This document shows positions 13,824-38,554 of a stretch of 38,554 nucleotides of DNA, one piece after another. The stretch lies in the IMG/VR virus record IMGVR_UViG_3300048050_000067, positions 1 to 38,554 of that record, one strand, 5' to 3'. Under the pieces are notes generated by a model. The model searched no databases and had not been told where the DNA came from. It was given only the letters and a program-made list of their open reading frames with translations. The position numbers were made by a program, and so were the translations under genes. Numbering within the stretch: position 1 is the stretch's first letter; each line of letters starts with the position of its first letter. Origin of the DNA: a virus.

Positions 13824-15590
13824 ATGGAAACAACCGCTGTTGAAAAATACATAAAATCAATCGAATCCGGAAAGGAAACGGTTGGATATTGGGTTCGCAC
13901 CTGGTATCTAAATCACATTAAACCAGTGATTGAAGATAAGGATCCAAAATACTATTTCGATCCCGAAGCCTCTTCTGATTTCTACAATTTCATCGACGAT
14001 TTTTGCCTTAATACCTCAAATCCGCGATTCTATGGCAAATCTTTAAAGCTTCTCGATTTTCAAAAAGCGAAATACGATTGCCTATTAGGAATTAAAAGCC
14101 GGGAAACCGATCTCAGAAGATTCCATCGCGTGGTCGATGAGGAAGGCCGCAAAAACGGGAAGACCGGAGCGGTATATCCTTTGCCGCTTTACATGATGGT
14201 CTCAGGCGGCGGCATTCAATGCACCTGCCTCGCTTCCAAACTCGATCAAGCGAAAATCCTATGGAATATGTGCGCCAAAGCGATCCAAATGAATCCAAGC
14301 CTTGAAAAACATTTATTCGATGTTCAGAGATTCAATCCATCGATCATTTCCACAAAAGGATCTTTGAATCTAAATTCGACTTTCAAGCCTTTAGCTAGAG
14401 ATCAGTCAAAAGACGGCGGCGGAAATGATGGCTATGAATTTTACGTCGGTATCATCGACGAAATACACAAGGCAACGCAAGAGCAGCAAGACAGCATCAT
14501 CCAAAGCCAGTCAGCAATGGATGCGCCGATACTTTGGGAAATGGGAACCTGCGGAAATAAACGTTATTCCCTTTGGGACGATTTGCGCCTCATGTGCAAA
14601 AAAGTCATTCTTGGCATCCAACAAGACGATTCCCTTATGCCGATTCTCTATGAAGCCGATAGCGATGATCTCGAACTCATCCCGGAGAACGAGCGTCCGA
14701 AGAAAGACGATCCCTTTGACATCACCATTTGGGGAAAGGCCAATCCGTCGCTTGGATATATCAAAAAAATAGAGTCTCTTGATGAACAAGCTTTGATGGC
14801 CAAAAACAATCCCAATCAGAAAATCGATTTTCTGAGAAAGGATTTGAATATCATCGGCCAAGAAAGCGTTGGATGGCTTTCCAGCGATCTCATCATCAAT
14901 CATTTCGTTTACACCGAAGAGGAAATGAAGGAATTCGATAACTCAACCGTTATCGGCGCTTTCGATCTTTCGAAGACAAACGATCTAACCGCATGGGGGA
15001 CTTTGATTTTCGACAAAAAAAGAAATCAGATTTTCCTTCAGCTCCAGTGCTGGTGCACCCAAGATTTCTTGGATTCCACGTATGCGAAAGAAGCTGGCGT
15101 TCCTTGGCAAGCTTGGATCGAGCGAGGTTTCCTCAAAATTTCGGGCTCCCATTTAATCGATTATCACGATATCTCAAATCATCTTCTTGGCGAGTTTAAG
15201 CGACATGGCTACACTTTCGACAAAATCTGCTACGATCCATATTCAGCGAACTATCTTATCGAAGAAATCGATGCTTTAGGATGGTCCAAAAATGGATGTT
15301 TAACGCCTGTTCCGCAAGGTTTCAAGTCCTTGAATATTCCAATGCAGGAGGCTCATGCCCTTCTTCAGGGTAAAAAAATCGTTTTCAACGACAACCCGAT
15401 GGTAATGTGGATGTTTTCGAACGTCGAACTCGTCGAAGACCGAAACGGGAACATGATGCCCAACAAGGCCGAGGACAGAAAATGCAACAAGATAGACGGT
15501 TTCTCAGTTCTGTTGGATTGCCTCTTTGCCTATTGCCAAAACAAGGATTATTTCTTGCCGGAAGGAGGCCATGATGGGAGCGCTAAATAA
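13824..15590 (+). CDS. terL: Terminase large subunit
   Basis: 588 aa with a Walker-A-like EEGRKNGKTG. It follows TerS and precedes the portal. Confidence 0.85.
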   Translation: METTAVEKYIKSIESGKETVGYWVRTWYLNHIKPVIEDKDPKYYFDPEASSDFYNFIDDFCLNTSNPRFYGKSLKLLDFQKAKYDCLLGIKSRETDLRRFHRVVDEEGRKNGKTGAVYPLPLYMMVSGGGIQCTCLASKLDQAKILWNMCAKAIQMNPSLEKHLFDVQRFNPSIISTKGSLNLNSTFKPLARDQSKDGGGNDGYEFYVGIIDEIHKATQEQQDSIIQSQSAMDAPILWEMGTCGNKRYSLWDDLRLMCKKVILGIQQDDSLMPILYEADSDDLELIPENERPKKDDPFDITIWGKANPSLGYIKKIESLDEQALMAKNNPNQKIDFLRKDLNIIGQESVGWLSSDLIINHFVYTEEEMKEFDNSTVIGAFDLSKTNDLTAWGTLIFDKKRNQIFLQLQCWCTQDFLDSTYAKEAGVPWQAWIERGFLKISGSHLIDYHDISNHLLGEFKRHGYTFDKICYDPYSANYLIEEIDALGWSKNGCLTPVPQGFKSLNIPMQEAHALLQGKKIVFNDNPMVMWMFSNVELVEDRNGNMMPNKAEDRKCNKIDGFSVLLDCLFAYCQNKDYFLPEGGHDGSAK

Positions 15591-21401: not shown

Positions 21402-22796
21402 ATGGCGGAAACGGCGGTAACACGAAACCTATCTGAGATAGACGCGCAGCTAAAGGAGCTAAGTGCCTCTATTAAATCGTGCACCATCGATTCAAAGGGC
21501 CTTGATAAAGCTCTGAAGCTCGATCCTACAAACATGTCCCTTGCCAGCACCAAGACTGGCGTCTTAAAGGACCAAATTGAATTGACCAGGCAAAAACTGG
21601 ATGCCCTAAAGCAAAAGCAGTCCGAATATGACAAACAAATCGCCGCAGGGGTCCCAATTGATCAAGCCGAATATCGGAAATTGACGGTCCAAATCGCCGA
21701 ATGCGAAAGTCAAGTTTCTACGATGACCAAACAAACTTCGGCCTTGAATACAACGAATCTCGACACCCTTAAAACGCAATTATCGGGGGTGTCCAAGGTC
21801 GCAAAAGCCCTTTTGGCGGGAATCGTTGCTATTGCCGTTGCTTTCGCCGCTGAAGGTTCGGAAATAGCGGACAACGCTTCTGCCGTCAACGTCGATGCCG
21901 AAACTTATCAGAAGATGAGCAATATCTTCGCCAAAACCACCGGGGACGCAAGCAATTATTCTTCAGCAATGGGGAATGTCACAAGGGTCCTTGCCGGCAT
22001 CAGCAAAGGATCAACCAAAAGCCAAGAGGCTTTAGCAAGCATCGGGCTAACGATGGACGATCTCAAAGGCAAAAGCGCCCAAGAAGCTTTGGAAATTATC
22101 ACTGGGGCCTTGAGCAAAGTTACCGACGAGAGCGAAAGAACGGTTCTAGCAACGGCATTGCTTGGCGATAGCGGAACCGCAATGGCACAGGTAGCAGGAT
22201 TGACTGCAAGTCAGATCTCTACTCTCAATGACAATCTTGAAAGTACGGGCATATTGACTAATGAGCAAGTTGCTTCGGCAAAAGAGTTGAAAACCACTTT
22301 TGAAAATCTAAAAAGCAAATTTATGGAAGTTGCCGCACAACTTGGGACGGCTTTGATGCCGGCATTCGAAGCTTTTGCAAATATATTAGCTGGCCTCGCT
22401 CCATTTCTTTCCATTGTGGCGTCTGGATTAAAGGCGATCGGTCCGGCAGGGCAAATTGCTTTGATTGGAATTATTGCTTTGATCGCGGTTCTTCCAAGTT
22501 TGATTACTGGGATAGGGGCTTTAAAGGTCGCATTGGATGCCTTAGCGGCCAATCCGATCATGTTAGCTGTGGCGGCCGTCATCGCCGGGACCGCGATCAT
22601 CGGAGGTGCGGCTCTCTTGATTTCCGGATTGGCTAATTCGGCAAATACAACATCTTCTTCGAGTTCGACATCAACCACCGACAATAGCACGACAACAATC
22701 AGTGTTTATAGCGATAGCACATCTTCTTCGGACGAAATCGCGGATAAAGTCGTCACCAAAATCGTGGAAGCCAAGAAAGCGAGGGGAATGCTATGA
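21402..22796 (+). CDS. Tape measure protein
   Basis: 464 aa with a coiled-coil-like N-terminal half and a long Ala/Gly/Ile-rich hydrophobic stretch, in the canonical position. Confidence 0.8.
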   Translation: MAETAVTRNLSEIDAQLKELSASIKSCTIDSKGLDKALKLDPTNMSLASTKTGVLKDQIELTRQKLDALKQKQSEYDKQIAAGVPIDQAEYRKLTVQIAECESQVSTMTKQTSALNTTNLDTLKTQLSGVSKVAKALLAGIVAIAVAFAAEGSEIADNASAVNVDAETYQKMSNIFAKTTGDASNYSSAMGNVTRVLAGISKGSTKSQEALASIGLTMDDLKGKSAQEALEIITGALSKVTDESERTVLATALLGDSGTAMAQVAGLTASQISTLNDNLESTGILTNEQVASAKELKTTFENLKSKFMEVAAQLGTALMPAFEAFANILAGLAPFLSIVASGLKAIGPAGQIALIGIIALIAVLPSLITGIGALKVALDALAANPIMLAVAAVIAGTAIIGGAALLISGLANSANTTSSSSSTSTTDNSTTTISVYSDSTSSSDEIADKVVTKIVEAKKARGML

Positions 22797-25901: not shown

Positions 25902-27076
25902 TGGCTAATCTTGAATTGGTAACTAAAAACGGGGGAATTGCCAACGCTTTCAGCGATTCCATAATTTATCATTCTATTTTCGGTGATGACAATAGAGCTC
26001 TGACTCGCGGAGTTATTTTCAATGGGATAGGATCTTCGCTTAGTGCTTTCGTTGACCAAAGTGGTAAAAAGATAACTATCGGGACCGGAATGGGTGCTTT
26101 ATACGGAAGACAATTTGAAATAGTTTCTCCTATTGAGTTCGATCTCAGCGCATTAACAGGAATAAAATATTGCTTAATTTATATTGAAGTCTCTACCAAG
26201 AATGTTACCGCTCAAACGGCGAAGCTTAAATTGGCTTATGACAGCGGTGGTTATCCCACGATTCCAAATGCTGATATCTATTCAAGCGAATTAGGCATTG
26301 CCGTGATGCCGATTTGGCGCTTTATTCTAACTACCACTTCGTCAACGCCAATCTCAGCCTTGACTAAACTCTTCTTTGGTAAAAACCCCGGGCAGGTTTT
26401 CAAAACGAAAAGCCTTCAGGCGAGAAGCTTCATTTTTAATAACAAAGTTTCCGAGATCCAAGATCCCGGGAAAGATTACTGGCTCAAGTCTAGAAATGCT
26501 GACTTGGCAACGACTTCGGCAAGGTTTGGCGGCCATTTATTTGATGCATCTTTGAACATCGACAGTTCATGCCAGGCTTTCGCGATCGCCGACACCCAAA
26601 AGATCACTTCTGATCAGCACACGACTAATGATGGCGTTAGCGGTTCTTGCTGGCAGGATGGCGATGATGTGTCTTATAAACTTTATGATTTAACGCCTTC
26701 GAACAGCCAAGCAAAAATAAGCGGGTGGATGGTTTACATGAAACTTTCCACCGCCAAGTTTAATTGGGGATTTTTGGGCCTCGGATCTCACTGGGAATAT
26801 GACGTCAAAGATTGGGTTACCTCATTTATCATTCCGAAATCAGGTCCGACGATTTATCTCGCACAAGATGCCTTAAACCATTCCATTTATGTTAAAAACG
26901 ATCCTCCTGAAGCCGGAATTCAAATTTTGACAATAGTTCTTCCAAGCTTTCTATGCCGACAATTAACGGTTTTAGGTTTAAAAATAAATTTTTACCCTAA
27001 AGCCGAGATAATTTGCAAAAGTTCCTATCGAACTTATGGGGAGATTCATTTAACCCCTTTGTTGAATCTTATTTAG
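25901..27076 (+). CDS. Distal tail / fibre-like structural protein, paralog 2
   Basis: It shares the N-terminal module with 24822-25901. Its start overlaps the upstream stop (TAATG). Confidence 0.6.
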   Translation: MANLELVTKNGGIANAFSDSIIYHSIFGDDNRALTRGVIFNGIGSSLSAFVDQSGKKITIGTGMGALYGRQFEIVSPIEFDLSALTGIKYCLIYIEVSTKNVTAQTAKLKLAYDSGGYPTIPNADIYSSELGIAVMPIWRFILTTTSSTPISALTKLFFGKNPGQVFKTKSLQARSFIFNNKVSEIQDPGKDYWLKSRNADLATTSARFGGHLFDASLNIDSSCQAFAIADTQKITSDQHTTNDGVSGSCWQDGDDVSYKLYDLTPSNSQAKISGWMVYMKLSTAKFNWGFLGLGSHWEYDVKDWVTSFIIPKSGPTIYLAQDALNHSIYVKNDPPEAGIQILTIVLPSFLCRQLTVLGLKINFYPKAEIICKSSYRTYGEIHLTPLLNLI

Positions 27077-27088
27077 GAGAAAATCAAA

Positions 27089-28222
27089 ATGGCAATCAAA
27101 CTTCTCGAATCGATCAATTCTGAAAGCAACGACACCGTTCAGTATCCGGATGACGGCGCTCCGATAAACTTTCTTTCCGCTTACAAGAAAAACGGAAGGA
27201 TTTTCGGAGCCTCCGTGACTATCAATGGAAAGGTTCTGACTATCTCTAAGGGTCTCTTAATTGCAAGGGGATTCCGCTTGGCAATTGATGGATCCACGGT
27301 TTTGCTTGATCTAACAAATTCGGCGATGCCGGCATCTCAAACAACTTTTAATATATTGATCTCCATCATCAGGACGGGGCATAACGCCACTTTCTCGGTT
27401 TCCTATCGTAATTCCTCGCTTTCCTATTCCACCGACGCCATCGATCAGGACGAGGGAACTTACGAGCTTAAAATCGGGATTTTGACTTTGAATTCTAGCG
27501 GCATCGTTGGCTATGCCGATGCGCTAACGACGATCGCTCCCCCTTCCTCAAGCGATTCGTCTTCCGGTGTCGGATCGATGCTTCCGCCCCCTGAGCTTGA
27601 GATCGTCTCAAGAAGGGCGGGAGGAGCTTATGGCGGTTATCTTGCCATCCGGAACAAGGGGGATTATTCCGGATATGCCACTAAATACTCGGTCCGATTC
27701 CAGCTTTTCCGATTCATGAGGAAGGCCAAATACCGCGAGAGAAGTGGGTCAACAAAGGTTTATCTTAGGAAAAGCGCGTTCGTTCAGCCAGCCGTCTCGT
27801 TGGGCTGGGGGACCGCTAAAATTCCGGTCATCGTCCTTCTTTCAGATCTTCAGACGGTGACGGTGACGGCAAACGGGACCTTCAGTTACATCCGGAAAGA
27901 CATTGTTTGCCCGATTTCGAATTTCGTAACATCGATGTTCTACGTCCCCGGAACGACGAAAACAGCCGTCACTAATTCCACCAACGTTTACAGCATCCGA
28001 TCCACTCGGTCCGAGAAGAAAAAGACGATCGGGCAATATGGAAAGCACGCCAAGCACAATTTCTTCATCTTCGCCTACAAAGTCTATCTCTACAGCGGAT
28101 CGGCGAGAATAGCGGAAAGCCCATTCTCAAAAACGGTGGTGATAACCCCGAATTATCATATGAAAGTAGCGAATGGGGCTTCGACCGGAATCGCTGGAAA
28201 GTTCCGGATCCTGATTGAGTGA
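27089..28222 (+). CDS. Distal tail / fibre-like structural protein, divergent paralog 3
   Basis: The layout matches at lower identity (ISKGLLIARGFRLAIDGS..., FNILISIIRTG, TYELKIGILTL). Confidence 0.5.
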   Translation: MAIKLLESINSESNDTVQYPDDGAPINFLSAYKKNGRIFGASVTINGKVLTISKGLLIARGFRLAIDGSTVLLDLTNSAMPASQTTFNILISIIRTGHNATFSVSYRNSSLSYSTDAIDQDEGTYELKIGILTLNSSGIVGYADALTTIAPPSSSDSSSGVGSMLPPPELEIVSRRAGGAYGGYLAIRNKGDYSGYATKYSVRFQLFRFMRKAKYRERSGSTKVYLRKSAFVQPAVSLGWGTAKIPVIVLLSDLQTVTVTANGTFSYIRKDIVCPISNFVTSMFYVPGTTKTAVTNSTNVYSIRSTRSEKKKTIGQYGKHAKHNFFIFAYKVYLYSGSARIAESPFSKTVVITPNYHMKVANGASTGIAGKFRILIE

Positions 28223-28230
28223 CGAAAAAT

Positions 28231-28381
28231 GGCAGGATCCTTTCCGGAGCTCCAATTGCCCCTATTAGAGGCTGATAAGGCGCCCGAGGCCATAAGCCTC
28301 CCGAGCCCGGCCTGTTAGGGAGTCTGGCCGTGAGCCGGCACCATTAAAGGGGCGATGTGGATCTCCGGAAAGGACCTTGCC
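28231..28381 (+). ncRNA. GC-rich, strongly self-complementary element of about 151 nt (candidate structured RNA or MITE-like insertion)
   Basis: GGCAGGATCCTTTCCGGAG (28231-28249) pairs with CTCCGGAAAGGACCTTGCC (28363-28381) over 19 positions, with one mismatch and one G-U. A second 9-bp stem is 28255-28263/28349-28357, with further internal hairpins. The element is visibly more GC-rich than its flanks. Confidence 0.5.
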
Positions 28382-28436
28382 TAAAATCCGATCAAATATT
28401 ATTTCCAAAAATGTCAAACAAAAGGAGGCATTGAAA

Positions 28437-30569
28437 ATGGAAAACACACTAGAAATTCAGCTCCATGAAACTGGAGAGCTCATCCCCGTAAAGGACGGAT
28501 CGTCTTCCTTGGGGGTTGAGATGGAAAGCGGAGCGACAACTCTTCAGATTGATCTTCCGGCGTCGGCTTTCGGGATGAATCATTATCTCGAATTCGTCAA
28601 ACCTGACGGGACGGCCGTTTCATCCGCCCCGCTGATTGAAACAACCAGCGCCGCAGGGATCCATTCGATCTCGCTCTCTGCCGGCAACACCATCACAGAC
28701 ATCGCGGGCCGCTACACTATTCAATATGTAGCAAGGTCTAAGGATTCGACGCCGAAGACGCTAAAGAGCAAAATCATCTATCTCGACATTGATCCATCCA
28801 CCAATGCGGTGTCTTATATCACCGAAAGCGATCCCGATTTCATCGCTTGGGCCACCAAACAAATCGCGGAACTGACCGCGAAGGTGGGAGGGCTCGATTC
28901 CGACGAAAGCGACGATCCTGCCACCAAACAAGAATTGGGAGATGAATCGATTAGAGCTCAAGGGGCTGAACTGGACAATGCCGATAATTTGGCTCTCGAA
29001 ACCGAAAGGGCTGAAGGAGTTGAGAGTGCTCACAGTCTTTCTTTGGCTGATCATGGCAATAGAATCAAGACTTTGGAAGATCTCATTATTTCCAACACTT
29101 TTTTCTATGGAATCAAATTCTACGATGGTGAAACCACAGGCGACCGCCTCGGATCGGCGGTTGGCCTCCAATCTGGCGTCAACGGCGGTGCCAACGATTT
29201 TGACCATATGCCTATTTTTAAAGACATAACAACCTACACCGATGCAAGCGGAAACAAAATTGTCAAAGTCGGGAAGGCCTTCTATTGCAAACGATTCCAC
29301 AACGGAACCCCCGGAAATTCCGGATATTGGTTCGCGGATTGCATTTCTCCTTATCAGATCGACAGTTCGTGGGGACTGCATTATGCGTTCCTCGACAAAA
29401 ACGGAGCCAACAGGGGCTATTTCACCATCGGGGCTTATTTCGCCTCTAAGAACGTCGCAAATACAAAATTGGTAACTGTTTCCGGGGCTGTCCCAGCGAC
29501 GGCAATGACCCCAACGGCAGCGAGAGCCCTTGCGGCAACTGGGTCGGCTCATCTCGCTGAGAACCGGAAGTTCGACGCTTTAACTCTCTTGTTTAGGATC
29601 GAATTCGCGACGAACAACGGTCAGGGAGTTTTCAAAGGCATTTCGGATATCACTTGCCTTTATCCCGGTGATTATGCGGCTTATCAGCCGGCAGGATCCG
29701 GAAACATCATGATCTTTCCGTGCGCCGATTGGTTTTCCGGAGATGAGGCCGCTTGGGCCGCTGCCTTCAAGGTCGGCGCTTCTGTTAACGTTTGGGATGA
29801 CAACGGAAGCGGATTCATCGGAGAGGTGGCAAGGCATGTCACCGCCATAACTTTTGCGACGGCAGCCAATCCCACGACCGGGGTTTCCGAAAGGCAGGTT
29901 CACATCACGATTAGCGGTTCGGCGATAAATCTTCAAAACGAAAATGAATATTACGCCAACATCCAAAATTACAACCCTTTCACGGGCCAATGCGATAATC
30001 TTTCCGGGTCGAGCGCAGAAGTTGTTTCTTCATATCAAGGCGTTCGTGCTTTCTCTTACAGGGGAATTGAGAACCTTTGGGGCGAGTTCTGGCAGTTCGC
30101 CGATGGCGTTTGCTTCGTGACTCATTATGCCGCCACAACGGAGGGCATAAGCACCAAACGATTTGAATGTTTTGACCCGTCGCATTATGACGAAATCGGG
30201 GTCGCATGGACAACCAACGTTGAAAGGGCATCTAATCTTCTTCCCCATTGGATTGTTTCCTACACCTATTACGCTCAAACGGCCCCTTCGGGATGGATCA
30301 TGAACTTCGCCGATTATCCGGTTTCGGATTATTACGGTATGGACGTTGCTCTTTCCGGGGCGGGAAGCGATCTTACCTATATTCCCGATTACGTTTATAT
30401 TCCGAATCCTTACACCTCGCCTACCGAATTTGAACGCCTTTTCGTTGCTTATCGGGGCGGTGGCGCCGGCAATGGCTCTGTCTGCGGTCCTTGCCTCCTC
30501 GATGGCTTCTATGATCCTTCGCTCGACGATTCGTGTTTCGGGTTCCGGCTTTCTTATGATCCTTCGTGA
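28437..30569 (+). CDS. Tail fibre / receptor-binding protein, the DGR variable (target) protein
   Basis: AGGAGG lies 8 nt upstream of ATG 28437. It is 710 aa and the last tail gene. The C-terminus YRGGGAGNGSVCGPCLLDGFYDPSLDDSCFGFRLS is C-type-lectin/FGE-like and contains the VR. Confidence 0.85.
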   Translation: MENTLEIQLHETGELIPVKDGSSSLGVEMESGATTLQIDLPASAFGMNHYLEFVKPDGTAVSSAPLIETTSAAGIHSISLSAGNTITDIAGRYTIQYVARSKDSTPKTLKSKIIYLDIDPSTNAVSYITESDPDFIAWATKQIAELTAKVGGLDSDESDDPATKQELGDESIRAQGAELDNADNLALETERAEGVESAHSLSLADHGNRIKTLEDLIISNTFFYGIKFYDGETTGDRLGSAVGLQSGVNGGANDFDHMPIFKDITTYTDASGNKIVKVGKAFYCKRFHNGTPGNSGYWFADCISPYQIDSSWGLHYAFLDKNGANRGYFTIGAYFASKNVANTKLVTVSGAVPATAMTPTAARALAATGSAHLAENRKFDALTLLFRIEFATNNGQGVFKGISDITCLYPGDYAAYQPAGSGNIMIFPCADWFSGDEAAWAAAFKVGASVNVWDDNGSGFIGEVARHVTAITFATAANPTTGVSERQVHITISGSAINLQNENEYYANIQNYNPFTGQCDNLSGSSAEVVSSYQGVRAFSYRGIENLWGEFWQFADGVCFVTHYAATTEGISTKRFECFDPSHYDEIGVAWTTNVERASNLLPHWIVSYTYYAQTAPSGWIMNFADYPVSDYYGMDVALSGAGSDLTYIPDYVYIPNPYTSPTEFERLFVAYRGGGAGNGSVCGPCLLDGFYDPSLDDSCFGFRLSYDPS
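30451..30555 (+). repeat. DGR variable region (VR)
   Basis: A 105-bp ungapped match to 30661-30765 has 16 mismatches, all opposite TR adenines. It lies in the last 40 codons of the fibre gene. Confidence 0.93.
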
Positions 30570-30578
30570 GAGGATTCG

Positions 30579-30600
30579 TCAAGGGGAAACCTCCCCTTGA
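30579..30600 (+). promoter_or_regulatory. GC-rich hairpin downstream of the VR (DGR target-recognition-type stem-loop)
   Basis: TCAAGGGGA-aacc-TCCCCTTGA has a 9-bp stem and a 4-nt loop. It starts 24 nt after the VR end and 10 nt after the stop codon. Confidence 0.7.
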
Positions 30601-30660
30601 CATGGATTTCGTTTGATCGATAGGGCGCGTCGCATGCAAAAGCGGTTCCCTCTGCTTCGG

Positions 30661-30765
30661 ATCGGGGCGGTAACGCCGGCAATGGCTCTAACTGCGGTCC
30701 TTGCAACCTCAATGGCAACAATGATCCTTCGAACGACGATTCGAGATACGGGTTCCGGCTATCTT
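30661..30765 (+). repeat. DGR template region (TR)
   Basis: This is the invariant-donor copy. It contains 24 adenines, 16 of which are substituted in the VR. In the VR frame it carries AAC x5 and AAT x3 codons. It lies in non-coding DNA upstream of the RT. Confidence 0.93.
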
Positions 30766-30881
30766 GTTTGATTTGTGGCATGCGCCATCCTCGCTGAATG
30801 CGGAAATTGGCTATGAAGGGGCCGGTTAGTAGTCTGAAAAGATCGAAAGCCGGCTGAAGCCAAAAGAAAGGCGGTTAAATC

Positions 30882-31961
30882 ATGAAAAGAAAAGGCCATT
30901 TATTTGAAGAGATGCTTTCCGATGGATCCATTCGCGAAGCGATCAAAAACGCAAGCCGTGGAAAAATGGGGAAGCCGTCTATTCGGAGAAGGATTGATAA
31001 TCTTGATGGCACCGTTCTTTCAATAAAAAATGTTTTATCCGAATCGACTTTCAAGCCTGCCGTGATGCAAACGATGACGATCAATGAGTATGGCAAGGAA
31101 AGGTTGATTAGCAAATCTCCTTTCTTTCCGGATCAGATAATCCATTGGCTTGTCATCGATGATTTGAGGCCTCTAATACAAAGAGGCATGGACAATGGCG
31201 TTTGCGGGTCGATACCTGGTCGCGGAACCAAAGAAGTGAAGAAACTGATCAAACGTTGGTTTTTGAAAGATCGGCGTGGCACGAAATGGTGCCTAAAGAT
31301 CGACATCCATCACTATTACCAGTCTATCGACCGCTCAAAACTCATGTCAAAAATTGGCAAACTCATCAAAGACGAAAAAATGATCGATCTTCTAAAAAGC
31401 ATTGTCGGAGATCCTGGCATCGGTATCCCGATTGGAACTTATTGGAGCCAATGGTTTGCAAACCTCTATCTTCAGGACTTCGACCATTTCATCCACGAGA
31501 AACTAGGAATCCACCATTCGGTTCGGTATGTTGACGATGTGGTTATCTTCAGTTCCAACAGAAGGAAGCTTGTCAAAGCCCAAAAAGCGATGGATATCTT
31601 CCTGAAGGACGAAGGTCTTGAGATGAAACCTAATTGGGCAATTTTCAAAACATCGGATCGGGATATCGATTTCGTAGGATGCCGCTTTCATCCCAACGGA
31701 AGAATCTCCATCAGAAAAAGAATTTGGCGTGTTGCCCGGAGAACGATTCTCCGGATAGCCCATCACGGTATCGGACTGCAAAGGGCAAGAAGGCTTATGA
31801 GCTACAATGGCTGGTTTCAGGGAACAAATAATTACATCATCAAAACAAAGTATCTTCCAAAGATGGATCTATTATCGGCTAAGTCGCTTATCGCACAGTC
31901 GGCAAGAGAAAAAGAAAATAATCCGAAAAATAAAGGAGGGATGCAGTATGCAAAATCTTAA
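30882..31961 (+). CDS. DGR reverse transcriptase
   Basis: GIGIPIGTYWSQWFANLYL carries the DGR hallmark IGxxxSQ (compare Brt GVGIPIGSLTSQLFANVYG). The catalytic motif is VRYVDDVVIF. RLISKSPFFPDQIIHWL and IDFVGCRF also parallel Brt. Confidence 0.93.
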   Translation: MKRKGHLFEEMLSDGSIREAIKNASRGKMGKPSIRRRIDNLDGTVLSIKNVLSESTFKPAVMQTMTINEYGKERLISKSPFFPDQIIHWLVIDDLRPLIQRGMDNGVCGSIPGRGTKEVKKLIKRWFLKDRRGTKWCLKIDIHHYYQSIDRSKLMSKIGKLIKDEKMIDLLKSIVGDPGIGIPIGTYWSQWFANLYLQDFDHFIHEKLGIHHSVRYVDDVVIFSSNRRKLVKAQKAMDIFLKDEGLEMKPNWAIFKTSDRDIDFVGCRFHPNGRISIRKRIWRVARRTILRIAHHGIGLQRARRLMSYNGWFQGTNNYIIKTKYLPKMDLLSAKSLIAQSAREKENNPKNKGGMQYAKS

Positions 31962-32208
31962 AGGAGAATCCACAGTTGAGCCAAAAACTAAAATCATCGG
32001 CAAGAATTCTGTGGACATCAACACCAACATTTCGCAGGTAACCAAAAAAACCGGACGGGGAACTAACGCCAAAACGGAAACCATTTACGCCTACGACGTC
32101 ACAAGGTACACGCTTCAGGAATACATCGAGAAGCTTTCCGACGATTCCACAACAACAAACATAGCTGTTGCAGAACTTTCAGATCTCGTTCTCACAAAGG
32201 AGGGATAA
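31948..32208 (+). CDS. Hypothetical protein downstream of the RT
   Basis: AAAGGAGGG lies 7 nt upstream of ATG 31948. It is 86 aa and overlaps the RT 3' end by 14 nt. It is not Avd-like (not basic or helical by eye). Confidence 0.55.
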   Translation: MQNLKGESTVEPKTKIIGKNSVDINTNISQVTKKTGRGTNAKTETIYAYDVTRYTLQEYIEKLSDDSTTTNIAVAELSDLVLTKEG

Positions 32209-32210
32209 TC

Positions 32211-32369
32211 ATGGCAACCCAAAGCATCGAAGGCATCGCTAGAAACTACGCCAATCTCATTGAGCAAGGTTTTCGCACAATCGATTCCATCAAGAACACT
32301 CTCGTTAGAGATCGTGTTCAAGAAATGATCGACGAGGACAAGAAGCAAGGGGGGAAAAATGGAACCTGA
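32211..32369 (+). CDS. Small XkdX/CD1375-like protein (52 aa, below the ORF-track cutoff)
   Basis: AAAGGAGGG precedes ATG 32211. YANLIEQGFRTIDSIKNTLVRDRVQEMI resembles the Y..LI..G.kT.d.vP...r..V pattern of small proteins found before holins in clostridial phages. Confidence 0.5.
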   Translation: MATQSIEGIARNYANLIEQGFRTIDSIKNTLVRDRVQEMIDEDKKQGGKNGT

Positions 32370-32661
32370 TGTTCTTCTTTTCGCCTGTATCTCGGCCGGA
32401 GGCACGCTCGTTGCCATTGGGATGAGCATTTATTCGATCTCCGCCTCCAAACGAAACCGGGCTGTCGGCCATGCAGTTTCTGATCAAAAGACAATCGATC
32501 AAATCGATCGCATTGATGAGCGAACTCTTGATATTAAATCAACCATGGATAAGCAGGATGATAAGATCGATGGCCTTGCCGTAAAGGTCGGACAGATCGA
32601 GGGCAAGCTCGGAATCAATCAGGAGGCCGCGCAAGCGACCGCCCCACCGTCAATCAAATAA
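32359..32661 (+). CDS. Membrane-anchored coiled-coil protein (lysis-associated or holin-like)
   Basis: One N-terminal TM segment (VLLFACISAGGTLVAIGMSIYSI) is followed by a coiled-coil-like stretch. Confidence 0.5.
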   Translation: MEPDVLLFACISAGGTLVAIGMSIYSISASKRNRAVGHAVSDQKTIDQIDRIDERTLDIKSTMDKQDDKIDGLAVKVGQIEGKLGINQEAAQATAPPSIK

Positions 32662-32706
32662 TCTAATAAATTCTAAACAAGCGCTGTCCATTTGGGAGGT
32701 CCCTTT

Positions 32707-33315
32707 ATGGACACTAACATCATTCCAGAGATCATTGCCTTTCTTTCGAAATATGGTTTGCTCGTCGGCCTGTTGGCTATCGCCATCGCCGGTCTAACCG
32801 AACTCATCAAAATTCCTATTTATCGAGCCGCCAAGAAGTACCAGGCATCCACCGGCGTTGACAAATCGGTGATCACATGGACAATCACGCTTGTCGCACA
32901 GGCTTTGTCCGTTTTGGCCGCCATCATTATCGGCCTTGCTGAAACGGGTTGGAACGTCGGGGCCGTCGATTGGGCATCCATCAGCGCCACTGCCGTTTCC
33001 ATTTATGCCGGATCTACCGGATTCTATGAAATCATCAAGAAGATCATCACGGCTATCAAAGCTTTTGTCTCTTCTCAGAAGACGAAGGCCCAGCAAGCCG
33101 CCAACACCGTCCTTGAGGAGGCCGCCAAGGCCGCCTCTACGGCCGAAGCGGCAGTTGCCTCCGCCAATACCTCATCTCAGGCTAAAACGGCTTTAGCCGC
33201 TGAAACCACGAAAGCCGAGAGTAAGGAAATCCTCGTAACGCAAGAAAAAACAACTTCCGGCTCCTCTTCGGCCGAAAGCAAAGAAGCGGAAACCGAAACT
33301 AAGAAGATTTGGTAA
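32707..33315 (+). CDS. Multi-pass membrane protein, putative holin with an Ala/Ser/Thr-rich tail
   Basis: GGGAGG lies 7 nt upstream of ATG 32707. There are three hydrophobic segments, then a low-complexity C-terminus. Confidence 0.5.
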   Translation: MDTNIIPEIIAFLSKYGLLVGLLAIAIAGLTELIKIPIYRAAKKYQASTGVDKSVITWTITLVAQALSVLAAIIIGLAETGWNVGAVDWASISATAVSIYAGSTGFYEIIKKIITAIKAFVSSQKTKAQQAANTVLEEAAKAASTAEAAVASANTSSQAKTALAAETTKAESKEILVTQEKTTSGSSSAESKEAETETKKIW

Positions 33316-34800: not shown

Positions 34801-34854
34801 TTAAGACATATGGAGCAAGTGACGGGAAGTTCTAAGTCTATTATCCCCAGTTTT

Positions 34855-35445: not shown

Positions 35446-36594
35446 TCAGGCTTTTTCTCGTTTTGAAGAAATCGAATCAAAGGCATTGGCTACCGATTTG
35501 ATCAACCTTTCTTCGTCTTCGGCTTTGACGTGATTCGCATAGGTGTTTAGAAACACGGTAGGGGAATTCCCGGTCATTTTTGCCGCCGCCGAGACATCCG
35601 AAACCGTTCGGCATTGAGCTCCGAGCCATGTTGACATCGTGTGCCTTAACCCATGTGGTGTCGAAAACGGCACTCCGGAGATCTCGCAGTAACGTTTCAT
35701 CGATCGCCTGAATGCGTTTTTCGAAAGGGGCTTGATATGATCCATACCCGTGAAAAGATAGTCATTTGAGTCTTTGGCTATCGAATCGATGTAATAATCC
35801 AAAAGGGAGGATATTTGCGCGGATAAAGGCTTGATTCGATAACTAGTTCTTGTCTTCAGACTATCGGTGTCGATGCATTTTCCGATGCCGGTTCCCTCTA
35901 TGATTTGATGGCTGAAGATGATCTTTTTTTCTTTGCGATCGTAGTCTTTAACTTTGAGGGCCAAAAACTCCCCGATTCGGCATCCGAGATAGCAAGCAAG
36001 TGAGAACATAATATAATCCGAAGATTCCTTTTCGATCGAATTCAAGAATTTCTTCTCCTCATCCATTGTCCAAACTATTTTTTCTTTGCGAGGGTGGAGA
36101 TCTTCTTTGATGTGCCTAGCTTTCCCGCAAAGAGTTTGGTAGGTATCGCTATCGATCATCTTTGCCTGCCAAGCGAAACGAATGAGATCCCGGAATCGTC
36201 CGATAACTTTGTTCGCAATGTTTCCGGAGCAGGAAGCGATAAGATTGTTATACCAATTAATTACTTTATCTTCGTTCAAGCAGTCCTTTAGAAGCATTCC
36301 TTTCCAAACTTTCATATGGGAAAAGTCGTTTTTGTCGCAATTAACTCTTGTTTGAAGGCCGATTCCATTTCTTTCACGATCGTCTTCATATATTTTCTGT
36401 AGATCTTCGAAGAAAAGCGGAAGATAGCAAGCGGAGTGGTCTCTCTTCCATTGAGCAATGGCACGATCATAATCATCGCTGGCTTCCTTTTTCGAGTGGT
36501 AACCATGAATGGTGCAGCTTTTAAATTTCCCATTTACCTTAATTTTGGTACTAATCAGAAACCCAGTCTTGCAAGGGTAAATTCCTTTTTTCAT
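35446..36594 (-). CDS. int: Tyrosine integrase
   Basis: 382 aa with an N-terminal arm-type/AP2-like domain. The catalytic pattern is LGCRIGEFLALKVKD (Arg), HGLRHTMSTW (HxxR) and LNTYANHV (Tyr). Confidence 0.9.
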   Translation of the reverse strand: MKKGIYPCKTGFLISTKIKVNGKFKSCTIHGYHSKKEASDDYDRAIAQWKRDHSACYLPLFFEDLQKIYEDDRERNGIGLQTRVNCDKNDFSHMKVWKGMLLKDCLNEDKVINWYNNLIASCSGNIANKVIGRFRDLIRFAWQAKMIDSDTYQTLCGKARHIKEDLHPRKEKIVWTMDEEKKFLNSIEKESSDYIMFSLACYLGCRIGEFLALKVKDYDRKEKKIIFSHQIIEGTGIGKCIDTDSLKTRTSYRIKPLSAQISSLLDYYIDSIAKDSNDYLFTGMDHIKPLSKNAFRRSMKRYCEISGVPFSTPHGLRHTMSTWLGAQCRTVSDVSAAAKMTGNSPTVFLNTYANHVKAEDEERLIKSVANAFDSISSKREKA

Positions 36595-37948: not shown

Positions 37949-38554
37949 ATGGATAAAAGTAAGAACTGACCTTCTCGATGGCTCTTCTTTCAAATTCATG
38001 AGAACGGCCGAGATCGGCGGGAAACCATTTCGCGACACTTTGGAGTCCATTTGGATTGAGCTTCTCACTTTGGCCGGGAAGATGAACAACAGCGGTTTCC
38101 TCGACAACGAGGAAGTGGATATCAGCACTTACGAAGACCTTGCGGCGATGATTGAGCGCAAACCGGATGAAGTGAAGCTCTGCATGGCCTTCTATTGCAA
38201 ACAAAAGATGGTCAAGGTCACCGAGAAGAAAATCGGTGATAAATCGGTGATCCGCTTCCTCATCGTTAATTTCGTCAAATACCAAAACGAAGATCACCTG
38301 TCGCTGATTAGGAAAAGGCACAAAGAAGCCCAAGCCAAATATCGCGAAAGCATCAAGGAGATAGAATCGAAAAATATCACGCGTGATATCACCGTGACAT
38401 CACCGGTGATAGATTCCTCTCAAGAGAAACAAGATAAGAAGAAACAAGATACGGAAGAGAATACTCCTTCGTCGTATTCCGTTAAACCTTGTTATACCAA
38501 GTTAGACCCCTTTTCAAGGGACCCCTATGTGGATTTCCTTTATGAGAAAGGATT
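37935..38554 (+). CDS. Phage replisome organizer, N-terminal part (runs off the window and continues at position 128 of the circle)
   Basis: AAAGGAG precedes ATG 37935. EEIEWIKVRTDLLDGSSFKFMRTAEIGGKPFRDTLESIWIELLTLAGKMNNSGFL matches the replisome-organizer N-terminal domain pattern. Confidence 0.7.
   Translation, partial: MEEIEWIKVRTDLLDGSSFKFMRTAEIGGKPFRDTLESIWIELLTLAGKMNNSGFLDNEEVDISTYEDLAAMIERKPDEVKLCMAFYCKQKMVKVTEKKIGDKSVIRFLIVNFVKYQNEDHLSLIRKRHKEAQAKYRESIKEIESKNITRDITVTSPVIDSSQEKQDKKKQDTEENTPSSYSVKPCYTKLDPFSRDPYVDFLYEKG
38428..38554. repeat. Terminal direct repeat, copy 2
   Basis: Identical to 1-127. Confidence 0.95.

Follow-up and report, generated by a model that had tools for sequence, protein, structure and literature searches.

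The stretch of DNA analysed here (hereafter the window) spans 38,554 nucleotides, positions 1 to 38,554 of the viral record IMGVR_UViG_3300048050_000067 in IMG/VR, and carries a compact diversity-generating retroelement (DGR) between positions 28437 and 31961 of its plus strand, on which all features described below lie unless stated otherwise. Phage tail-fibre diversification by DGRs was first described in 2002, and catalogues now list thousands of such elements; the present one is of this well-known kind, and its existence is not surprising. Read in the direction of transcription, the cassette comprises a target gene for a 710-aa distal tail (fibre-like) protein (28437–30569), whose 3′ end contains the variable repeat (VR; 30451–30555), followed by a non-coding template repeat (TR; 30661–30765), a structured spacer and the gene for a 359-aa reverse transcriptase (RT; 30882–31961). 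The target open reading frame (ORF) has a sensible start at ATG 28437, with the ribosome-binding sequence AAGGAGG ahead of it. Spacing is tight throughout: the VR ends 14 nt before the target stop codon, VR and TR are separated by 105 nt, of which the interval from stop codon to TR takes up only 91 nt, and another 116 nt lead from the TR to the start codon of the RT gene.

A repeat finder recovers VR and TR as an ungapped direct repeat of 105 nt, offset by 210 nt and 85% identical. Compared base by base, the two differ at 16 positions, every one of them a TR adenine and none a C, G or T; given the composition of the TR (24 A, 29 C, 28 G and 24 T), the hypergeometric probability that 16 random mismatches would all fall on its 24 adenines is 2.3e-13. 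From TR to VR, ten of the substitutions run from A to T, four from A to G and two from A to C. In the target frame, the TR codon AAC appears in the VR as GGC, GTC, CTC, TTC and CTC, AAT as GAT and TAT, AGA as TGT, TAC as TTC and CTA, silently, as CTT, such that nine residues are recoded and one change leaves the protein unaltered. An earlier, sequence-only reading of this DNA had reported the same alignment and the same codon table, with AAC, AAT, AGA and TAC as the affected codons, and both were reproduced on recomputation. The VR encodes the last ~35 residues before a constant GFRLSYDPS tail, the protein ending in ...YRGGGAGNGSVCGPCLLDGFYDPSLDDSCFGFRLSYDPS at its stop codon. Most of the TR adenines lie in codons that read AAC or AAT in the VR frame. 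The stop-avoiding design that had been proposed for this repeat is not completely stop-free, because the TR codon AGA (30744–30746; VR 30534–30536) can mutate to TGA and so truncate the protein prematurely, five codons ahead of the constant GFRLS. In the target, as many as 13 codons can be recoded, making ~3e12 amino-acid combinations accessible. When the whole window was scanned with the TR pattern, each adenine being allowed to stand for any base, only the VR and the TR itself matched, and the window therefore holds a single target. Separately, a 25-nt stretch of the VR (30510–30534; TATGATCCTTCGCTCGACGATTCGT) recurs with 84% identity at 30555–30579, spanning the stop codon. Both copies encode Y-D-P-S, and the similarity is weaker in related lineages; the repeat may be left over from an old duplication or from mis-homing, or may be no more than a repeated peptide motif.

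The RT carries the motifs IPIGTYWSQ (a form of IGxxxSQ) and YVDD, and matches Pfam RVT_1 (E = 3e-15) and the phage RT family PHROG 1423 (E = 2e-86). Its best match among solved structures is 8ub7 (E = 4e-24), ahead of the best group II intron RT (E = 2.5e-11); we identify 8ub7_A as the Bordetella phage enzyme bRT because its residue numbers (D138, I181, G182, Q187 and D215/D216) agree with those of bRT in the cryo-electron microscopy (cryo-EM) preprint. Residues R74, I184-G-T-Y-W-S-Q190 and D218/D219 of the window RT align to R74, I181, Q187 and D215/D216 of bRT, in which R74 and I181 have been shown to promote adenine mutagenesis; [I/V/L]GxxxSQ is the signature motif of DGR RTs. A family-model scan placed the RT below all curated cut-offs for group II, retron and Drt families (TIGR04416, 90 bits against 300; Drt3a, 70 against 200; Retron St85, 50 against 235), and the best RT match in PADLOC was a generic RT model. 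Judged by motifs and profile matches, the RT is of the DGR type with bRT as its nearest solved enzyme, in keeping with the Brt-like RT bearing IGTYWSQ and YVDD that had been described from the letters alone.

Direct evidence of activity comes from comparing the window with copies of the same phage from three other samples, aligned over 6.1–8.6 kb: L004 (SRR11595466), L005 (SRR7549134) and L006 (JGI 3300036495), the last a prophage within a 139-kb contig. These copies differ from the window at ten sites (30471, 30472, 30480, 30495, 30501, 30508, 30511, 30522, 30523 and 30534), all inside the VR and all opposite TR adenines; L004 has one extra single-nucleotide polymorphism (SNP), at 32350, which is unrelated to the VR. 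The TR is identical in the four independent assemblies. With the two alleles combined, 19 of the 24 TR adenines have been changed, as against none of the non-adenine sites. Adenine-specific rewriting has taken place between otherwise identical phage copies, in at least one event, and the element has recently been active; because L004, L005 and L006 carry one common VR allele, the comparison establishes at least one rewriting event and not a rate. Variation restricted to adenine-templated VR sites beside an invariant TR is what the sequence-only reading had expected of mapped reads, for which the assembly comparison stands in here, and the recurrence of the adenine-only pattern in independent assemblies speaks against the assembly artefact that it had considered. 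Protein clusters give a similar picture. The 90%-identity cluster of the window protein contains two other sequences, with eight residue differences that all fall within residues 679–700, and in a sister lineage (target 50% identical) twelve cluster members have one backbone, bar 1–3 scattered substitutions, and differing VR residues. Pattern scans of metagenome and viral collections returned no extra VR alleles of this phage and, for its family, only contigs that were already known. One contig of the L002 lineage (L035; Ga0183100_1000659, 2296 nt) ends inside its VR, a break that would be expected if the VR were heterogeneous in that sample.

RT searches uncovered four further lineages at 61–67% RT identity (L001/L007/L008, L002, L009/L010 and L011/L014), together with distant relatives at 29–38% identity consisting of viral loci and one genome bin. 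A VR/TR pair is present at 17 loci, with a repeat of 70–115 nt, a VR–TR gap of 62–343 nt and a TR lying 113–405 nt upstream of the RT gene; the adenine-specific pattern first noted in the window recurs in all of them, the mismatches falling without exception, or with a single one, on TR adenines. The compact order target, TR, RT is likewise common to all relatives (RT identity 29–67%) in which such a pair could be recognised. Since the relatives share both this layout and the adenine mismatches, the window element is a member of a broad phage-borne DGR lineage.

The target itself closes the tail module, downstream of the tape-measure and tail genes, as the sequence-only reading had stated, and its residues 263–709 match PHROG 5302, annotated 'tail protein' (E = 1e-27). 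Alignment of homologues shows that its N-terminal ~230 aa form a conserved module, and the same module is joined to an unrelated C-terminus in another protein (P0006), as modular fibres would lead one to expect. The remainder, residues ~250–710 (29184–30566), appears to be a variable-protein domain. Profiles of the window family over residues 250–710 align with the targets of the distant relatives at 99.9% probability (hhalign, E = 1.8e-32); the distant relatives' targets alone match TaqVP (5VF4; E = 2.9e-12), the variable protein, whose fold is that of C-type lectins (CLec), of a Thermus prophage DGR, as well as Mtd (E = 0.025), the latter exactly over the Mtd VR, and a joint profile of both groups matches TaqVP residues 58–383 (E = 2.2e-12). 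Because the distant relatives' targets link the window family to TaqVP and Mtd, a CLec fold for the C-terminal domain is supported by homology. Its extent must be revised from the span of residues ~560–710 first proposed, as the domain covers ~460 aa rather than 150. The enlargement includes an insertion of ~110 aa (residues ~402–511, window ~29640–29970) that the distant relatives do not have; AlphaFold2 is confident only for this insert (residues ~407–506), which it predicts to be a beta-rich module (predicted local distance difference test, pLDDT, up to 92). A sequence search with the C-terminal 210 aa gave no meaningful match in the PDB, and scans of the full-length protein against Pfam and NCBIfam yielded no domain. 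Most viral DGRs act on tail proteins, and such DGRs are abundant in metagenomes; for the window phage, it is reasonable to suppose that the element lets it switch tropism.

We aligned the region from the target stop codon to the RT gene across five lineages and folded the alignment with RNAalifold. [quoted passage not shown] Immediately after it, 8 nt past the stop codon, stands a GC-rich hairpin (30578–30601) with a 10-bp stem and a 4-nt loop (GTCAAGGGGA-AACC-TCCCCTTGAC; DNA fold −13.2 kcal/mol, z −3.9). Across five lineages the stem persists, one of its pairs having changed in a compensatory way, and the loop varies. The hairpin probably corresponds to the GC-rich inverted repeat that follows IMH in the Bordetella phage DGR.

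On either side of the TR, the strands 30622–30637 and 30778–30791, the second of them 12 nt past the TR end, form a duplex of 14 pairs that brackets the repeat, three of the pairs showing compensatory changes. The duplex is followed directly by a short stem-loop (CGC-N5-GCG; 30792–30802) and an adenosine run (GAAAT; 30803–30807); both are part of a match to the Rfam family RT-18 (RF03021) that extends over 30792–30869 and continues through the nested stems P2, P3 and P4 (within 30807–30863), the innermost, P4, having two compensatory pairs. At 42.4 bits against a gathering score of 41.3, the window lies just above the threshold, and 13 related loci have RT-18 or the overlapping family RT-17 in the equivalent place, the stronger matches reaching 51–53 bits. 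In L020, L021 and L022 (3867–3955) and in L023 (355–443), both families score above their gathering scores on the same stretch; RT-17 and RT-18 appear to be variants of one DGR spacer RNA. As assembled from these elements, the structure has 96.5% of its cells paired, compared with 31–46% when partners are slid by 1–3 columns, and six pairs have changed on both sides. A bracketing duplex recurs in the distant relatives, where the 18 nt directly 5′ of the RT-18 match pair with a segment just upstream of the TR over 12–16 bp, ranking in the top 0–0.5% of locus windows in 10 of 12 loci; the sequences involved are unrelated to those of the window, and the stem-loop after the duplex is again trailed by an adenosine run (AAAAT). 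The duplex, the spacer RNA and the absence of avd had all gone unremarked in the sequence-only reading.

Position 30551, within the candidate IMH segment, bears on where copying begins. All five lineages, and both alleles, have a T here in the VR against an A in the TR, and any base there would be silent; because this difference is fixed despite the silent codon position, cDNA synthesis is suggested to start upstream of 30551, between TR offsets 88 and 100. The spacer RNA would prime in cis. Two candidate template:primer pairings were considered and set aside. One between AGCCGG in RT-18 and CCGGCT at the TR end was dropped, as lineage L011 shows no compensation, and the same held for the upstream GGTTCCC with GGGTTCC: RNAalifold paired the upstream GGTTCC(C) with the TR end, a pairing that is unsupported since L011 lacks compensating changes. 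Heptamer-like copies of GGTTCC(C) occur upstream of the TR (30645–30651), at the VR 3′ end (30541–30547) and at the TR 3′ end (30751–30757). A scan for promoters and terminators around the cassette gave nothing above shuffle expectation.

In the Bordetella paradigm the accessory protein Avd is essential for cDNA synthesis. Among 96 ORFs of 70–210 aa on both strands of the window, Pfam searches found no match to the Avd family, the hits being to HTH, HNH and head-completion families and a few others, and no avd gene turned up at the equivalent position in the relatives. In the close family, the RT gene is followed by syntenic ORFs of ~81–86, 48–52, 100 and 185–207 aa, and here too no avd was found. 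The first of these in the window is an acidic 86-aa ORF (31948–32208) that overlaps the RT stop codon and belongs to PHROG 18126, of unknown function. It is conserved only in the close family, with unrelated small acidic ORFs at the same position in the distant relatives: the window and all relatives examined have an acidic ORF of small size (81–158 aa, isoelectric point 4.3–6.2) that starts in or at the end of the RT gene (for example L015 5010–5447, L020 5014–5490, L026 5317–5679 and L031 4974–5336). At least three groups can be told apart among these ORFs, without mutual homology by phmmer or hhalign and without annotation, and the idea of a conserved accessory gene at this position was set aside because the three groups share no homology. 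The 31948–32208 ORF is probably a phage gene and a neighbour only; more generally, the ORFs at the RT end may serve fibre assembly or another phage function, or may encode DGR helpers specific to each lineage, like the acidic CH1 of Wu et al. The absence of Avd from this phage is real, yet it is an already recognised variant: Wu et al. 2018 found 29% of DGRs to be without accessory genes ("Architecture A"), described one RT lineage without avd, and did not find a trans-encoded avd in genomes with avd-less DGRs.

The cassette sits in the genome of a temperate tailed phage, circular at 38.4 kb. Positions 1–127 and 38428–38554 of the window are an exact 127-bp direct repeat, and because of this terminal repeat we take the genome to be circularly closed (or concatemer-derived) at ~38.4 kb. 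The large terminase gene (13824–15590) is followed by those for the portal, protease and major head protein; the tape-measure gene (21402–22796) precedes five tail-region ORFs, one with a weak minor-tail match, and then the target. The ORFs after the RT gene are small, one of them membrane-protein-like. An integrase (35446–36594) and a repressor are encoded on the minus strand. Identity between the window and the prophage copy L006 stops at window position 34828, and the junction (L006 16435–16508) falls inside a tRNA-Gly(GCC) gene, beside a Glu/Gln-type tRNA synthetase gene; since identity ends within this tRNA gene, the phage integrates into the 3′ end of tRNA-Gly. The window corresponds to the excised form, with the integrase gene just beyond the 34828 junction, and the sister lineage L011 adjoins a homologous tRNA synthetase gene. 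Compared by blastn with a GenBank phage collection, positions 26000–33000 of the window had no match.

These elements can be arranged into a working model. RNA would be transcribed from upstream of the TR, through the TR and into the spacer, where the 14-bp duplex (30622–30637 with 30778–30791) would close off the TR and the stem-loop, the adenosine run and the multi-stem RT-18 fold would come next. The RT would bind this folded RNA and copy the TR into cDNA, placing random nucleotides opposite adenines. The cDNA would then take the place of the VR in the last tail gene, at its 3′ end, a step presumably directed by the conserved GC-rich VR end and the hairpin downstream, so that up to 13 codons of a putative lectin-like receptor-binding tip would be recoded, with ~3e12 protein variants within reach. 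Variant tips could in turn let the phage follow changes in the surface receptors of its host. The roles given here to the bracketing duplex and to the post-VR hairpin are predictions.

Of the defining DGR features tested, all were found except Avd, which is not universal, and we consider it very probable that this temperate tailed phage carries a genuine accessory-gene-free DGR, made up of target, TR and RT in that order. To hold that no DGR exists here, one would have to place a retron, group II intron or defence RT beside a diverged duplication or an assembly artefact. Models of group II, retron and Drt enzymes do match the palm domain of the RT weakly, but these matches lie far below the curated cut-offs, bRT is the best solved relative, and the adenine-only pattern (P = 2e-13) recurs in independent assemblies and at 17 related loci, leaving this explanation effectively refuted. 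We likewise judge it very improbable that the element has decayed or fallen dormant and that the VR/TR pattern is a fossil of past activity. Such a history would suit the finding of two VR alleles only, with three assemblies sharing one; against it, the RT ORF is intact with all catalytic motifs, the TR, hairpin and spacer RNA are intact and conserved, ten adenine sites changed as the surrounding 8.6 kb gained no change (one in one copy), and the sister lineage has a different VR in nearly every sample. That the target is some other virion protein, or one related to lysogeny, and not a receptor-binding tail fibre, in which case there would be no tropism switching, seems improbable: the protein has no Pfam or NCBIfam domain, and its label as a tail protein comes from a PHROG family only, but the gene comes straight after those for the tape measure and the distal tail, with small ORFs after the RT, its N-terminal module is common to a protein with a different C-terminus, as in modular fibres, and viral DGR targets are mostly tail proteins.

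What the element needs in order to work is a more finely balanced matter. We put forward, tentatively and as a proposal with slightly less than even prospects, that RT-18 and RT-17 are the cis-acting spacer RNAs of a whole phage DGR lineage that works without Avd, and that RT and RNA make up a minimal two-component machine for mutagenic retrohoming, in which the RNA would keep a unit like the cPRT Stop of Bordetella and an RT-binding multi-stem and would have lost the Avd-binding stem-loop. The element would on this proposal be independent of Avd. A genuine DGR that is not self-sufficient, drawing on an Avd-like or other helper from the host chromosome or from an unannotated phage ORF, strikes us as rather unlikely. 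Avd is essential in the Bordetella system, and the RT stop is overlapped by a small acidic ORF both in the window and in all relatives examined; set against this are the zero Avd family matches among the 96 window ORFs, the division of the downstream small ORFs into at least three families without detectable mutual homology, the presence of only 12 nt where the Bordetella RNA has its Avd-binding stem-loop, and the failure of Wu et al. to find trans-encoded avd in genomes with avd-less DGRs. Several points count against our main reading of a working accessory-gene-free DGR that acts on a receptor-binding tail tip. The missing Avd match is one of them, Avd being needed for cDNA synthesis in Bordetella. 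No convincing template:primer duplex or priming nucleotide emerged, with no pairing conserved across lineages. The evidence for activity is a comparison of assemblies, and only two VR alleles were found for this phage, such that a single homing event would explain the assemblies. The place of the target in the virion and its receptor-binding role are deduced from gene order and the PHROG label. The CLec fold depends on transitive profile homology, the profile of the window family alone having no meaningful PDB match, and AlphaFold2 models are of low confidence (residues 401–710 from 5 sequences, pLDDT 38; residues 250–710 from 15 sequences, pLDDT 40); of the CLec/FGE scaffold that the sequence-only reading had seen in the VR, homology to TaqVP and Mtd is in favour, and these models lend it no support.

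The value of this element lies less in its existence than in what accompanies it. Near-identical genomes from different samples differ only at adenine-templated VR sites, bar one SNP, and the compact, Avd-less lineage is easy to handle, offering a model for DGRs that may be Avd-independent. The orphan Rfam families RT-18 and RT-17 are linked to the TR–RT spacer of an Avd-less DGR lineage, suggesting that RNA features seen in the Bordetella cryo-EM structure, such as the cPRT-Stop-like unit, persist without Avd or the Avd-binding stem-loop. If the two-component proposal is true, a self-sufficient system of RT and RNA would be simpler to engineer for targeted protein diversification.

Among catalogued DGRs, the element belongs with Architecture A of Wu et al. 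2018, which includes the avd-less Lineage 3: like these, it has a TR–RT core with an adjacent upstream target and no homologue of avd, HRDC, MSL or CH1. Its RT-18 RNA and bracketing duplex go unmentioned in the searched text of that study. For the RNA, the stretch 30792–30869 exceeds the gathering score of RT-18 and sits immediately 5′ of an RT gene, the placement that defines the family. When Weinberg et al. 2017 described these motifs, only RT-10 was tied to a DGR, that of Bordetella, and RT-18 was given no function, although the authors speculated that other RT motifs might serve DGRs or retrons; a text search of the literature found no later functional assignment for RT-18 or RT-17. For the target, the best solved relative of the domain family is TaqVP (5VF4, from a Thermus aquaticus prophage DGR), reached through the distant relatives. 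The two share the motifs GIxxLxGNxWEW and RGGxWxxGxxAG...GxR, and their VRs are in register; they differ in that the window protein has, in addition, the insert domain and a long region for tail attachment at its N-terminus. The TaqVP paper likens the genetic structure of the Thermus prophage DGR to that of the Bordetella cassette, of which avd is a part.

The closest mechanistic reference is the DGR of Bordetella phage BPP-1 (mtd-avd-TR-brt). From it the window differs in lacking an avd gene, in the low identity of its RT (E = 4e-24), in a target domain of ~460 aa with an insert of ~110 aa and only a weak match to Mtd, over the Mtd VR, and in its spacer RNA, which belongs to RT-18 as opposed to RT-10 in Bordetella. 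The interval from the TR end to the next element also differs, at 12 nt in the window against ~46 nt in BPP-1, where the stretch from TR end to duplex holds the Avd-binding stem-loop together with the primer strand. That stem-loop would not fit into 12 nt, and with no space for it, the short spacing fits the absence of Avd. By contrast, the two systems agree in the position of the VR at the 3′ end of a phage gene for a tail fibre (in the window, a putative one), in adenine-specific transfer from TR to VR, in an RT with IGxxxSQ and YxDD motifs and equivalents of R74 and I181, and in a GC-rich hairpin after the VR. The likeness extends to the RNA: in Bordetella the cPRT Stop consists of the avd:Sp duplex, a short stem-loop and A-minor adenosines, with an RT-binding stem-loop next, and in the window a duplex of the TR flanks is likewise followed by a short stem-loop and a run of adenosines.

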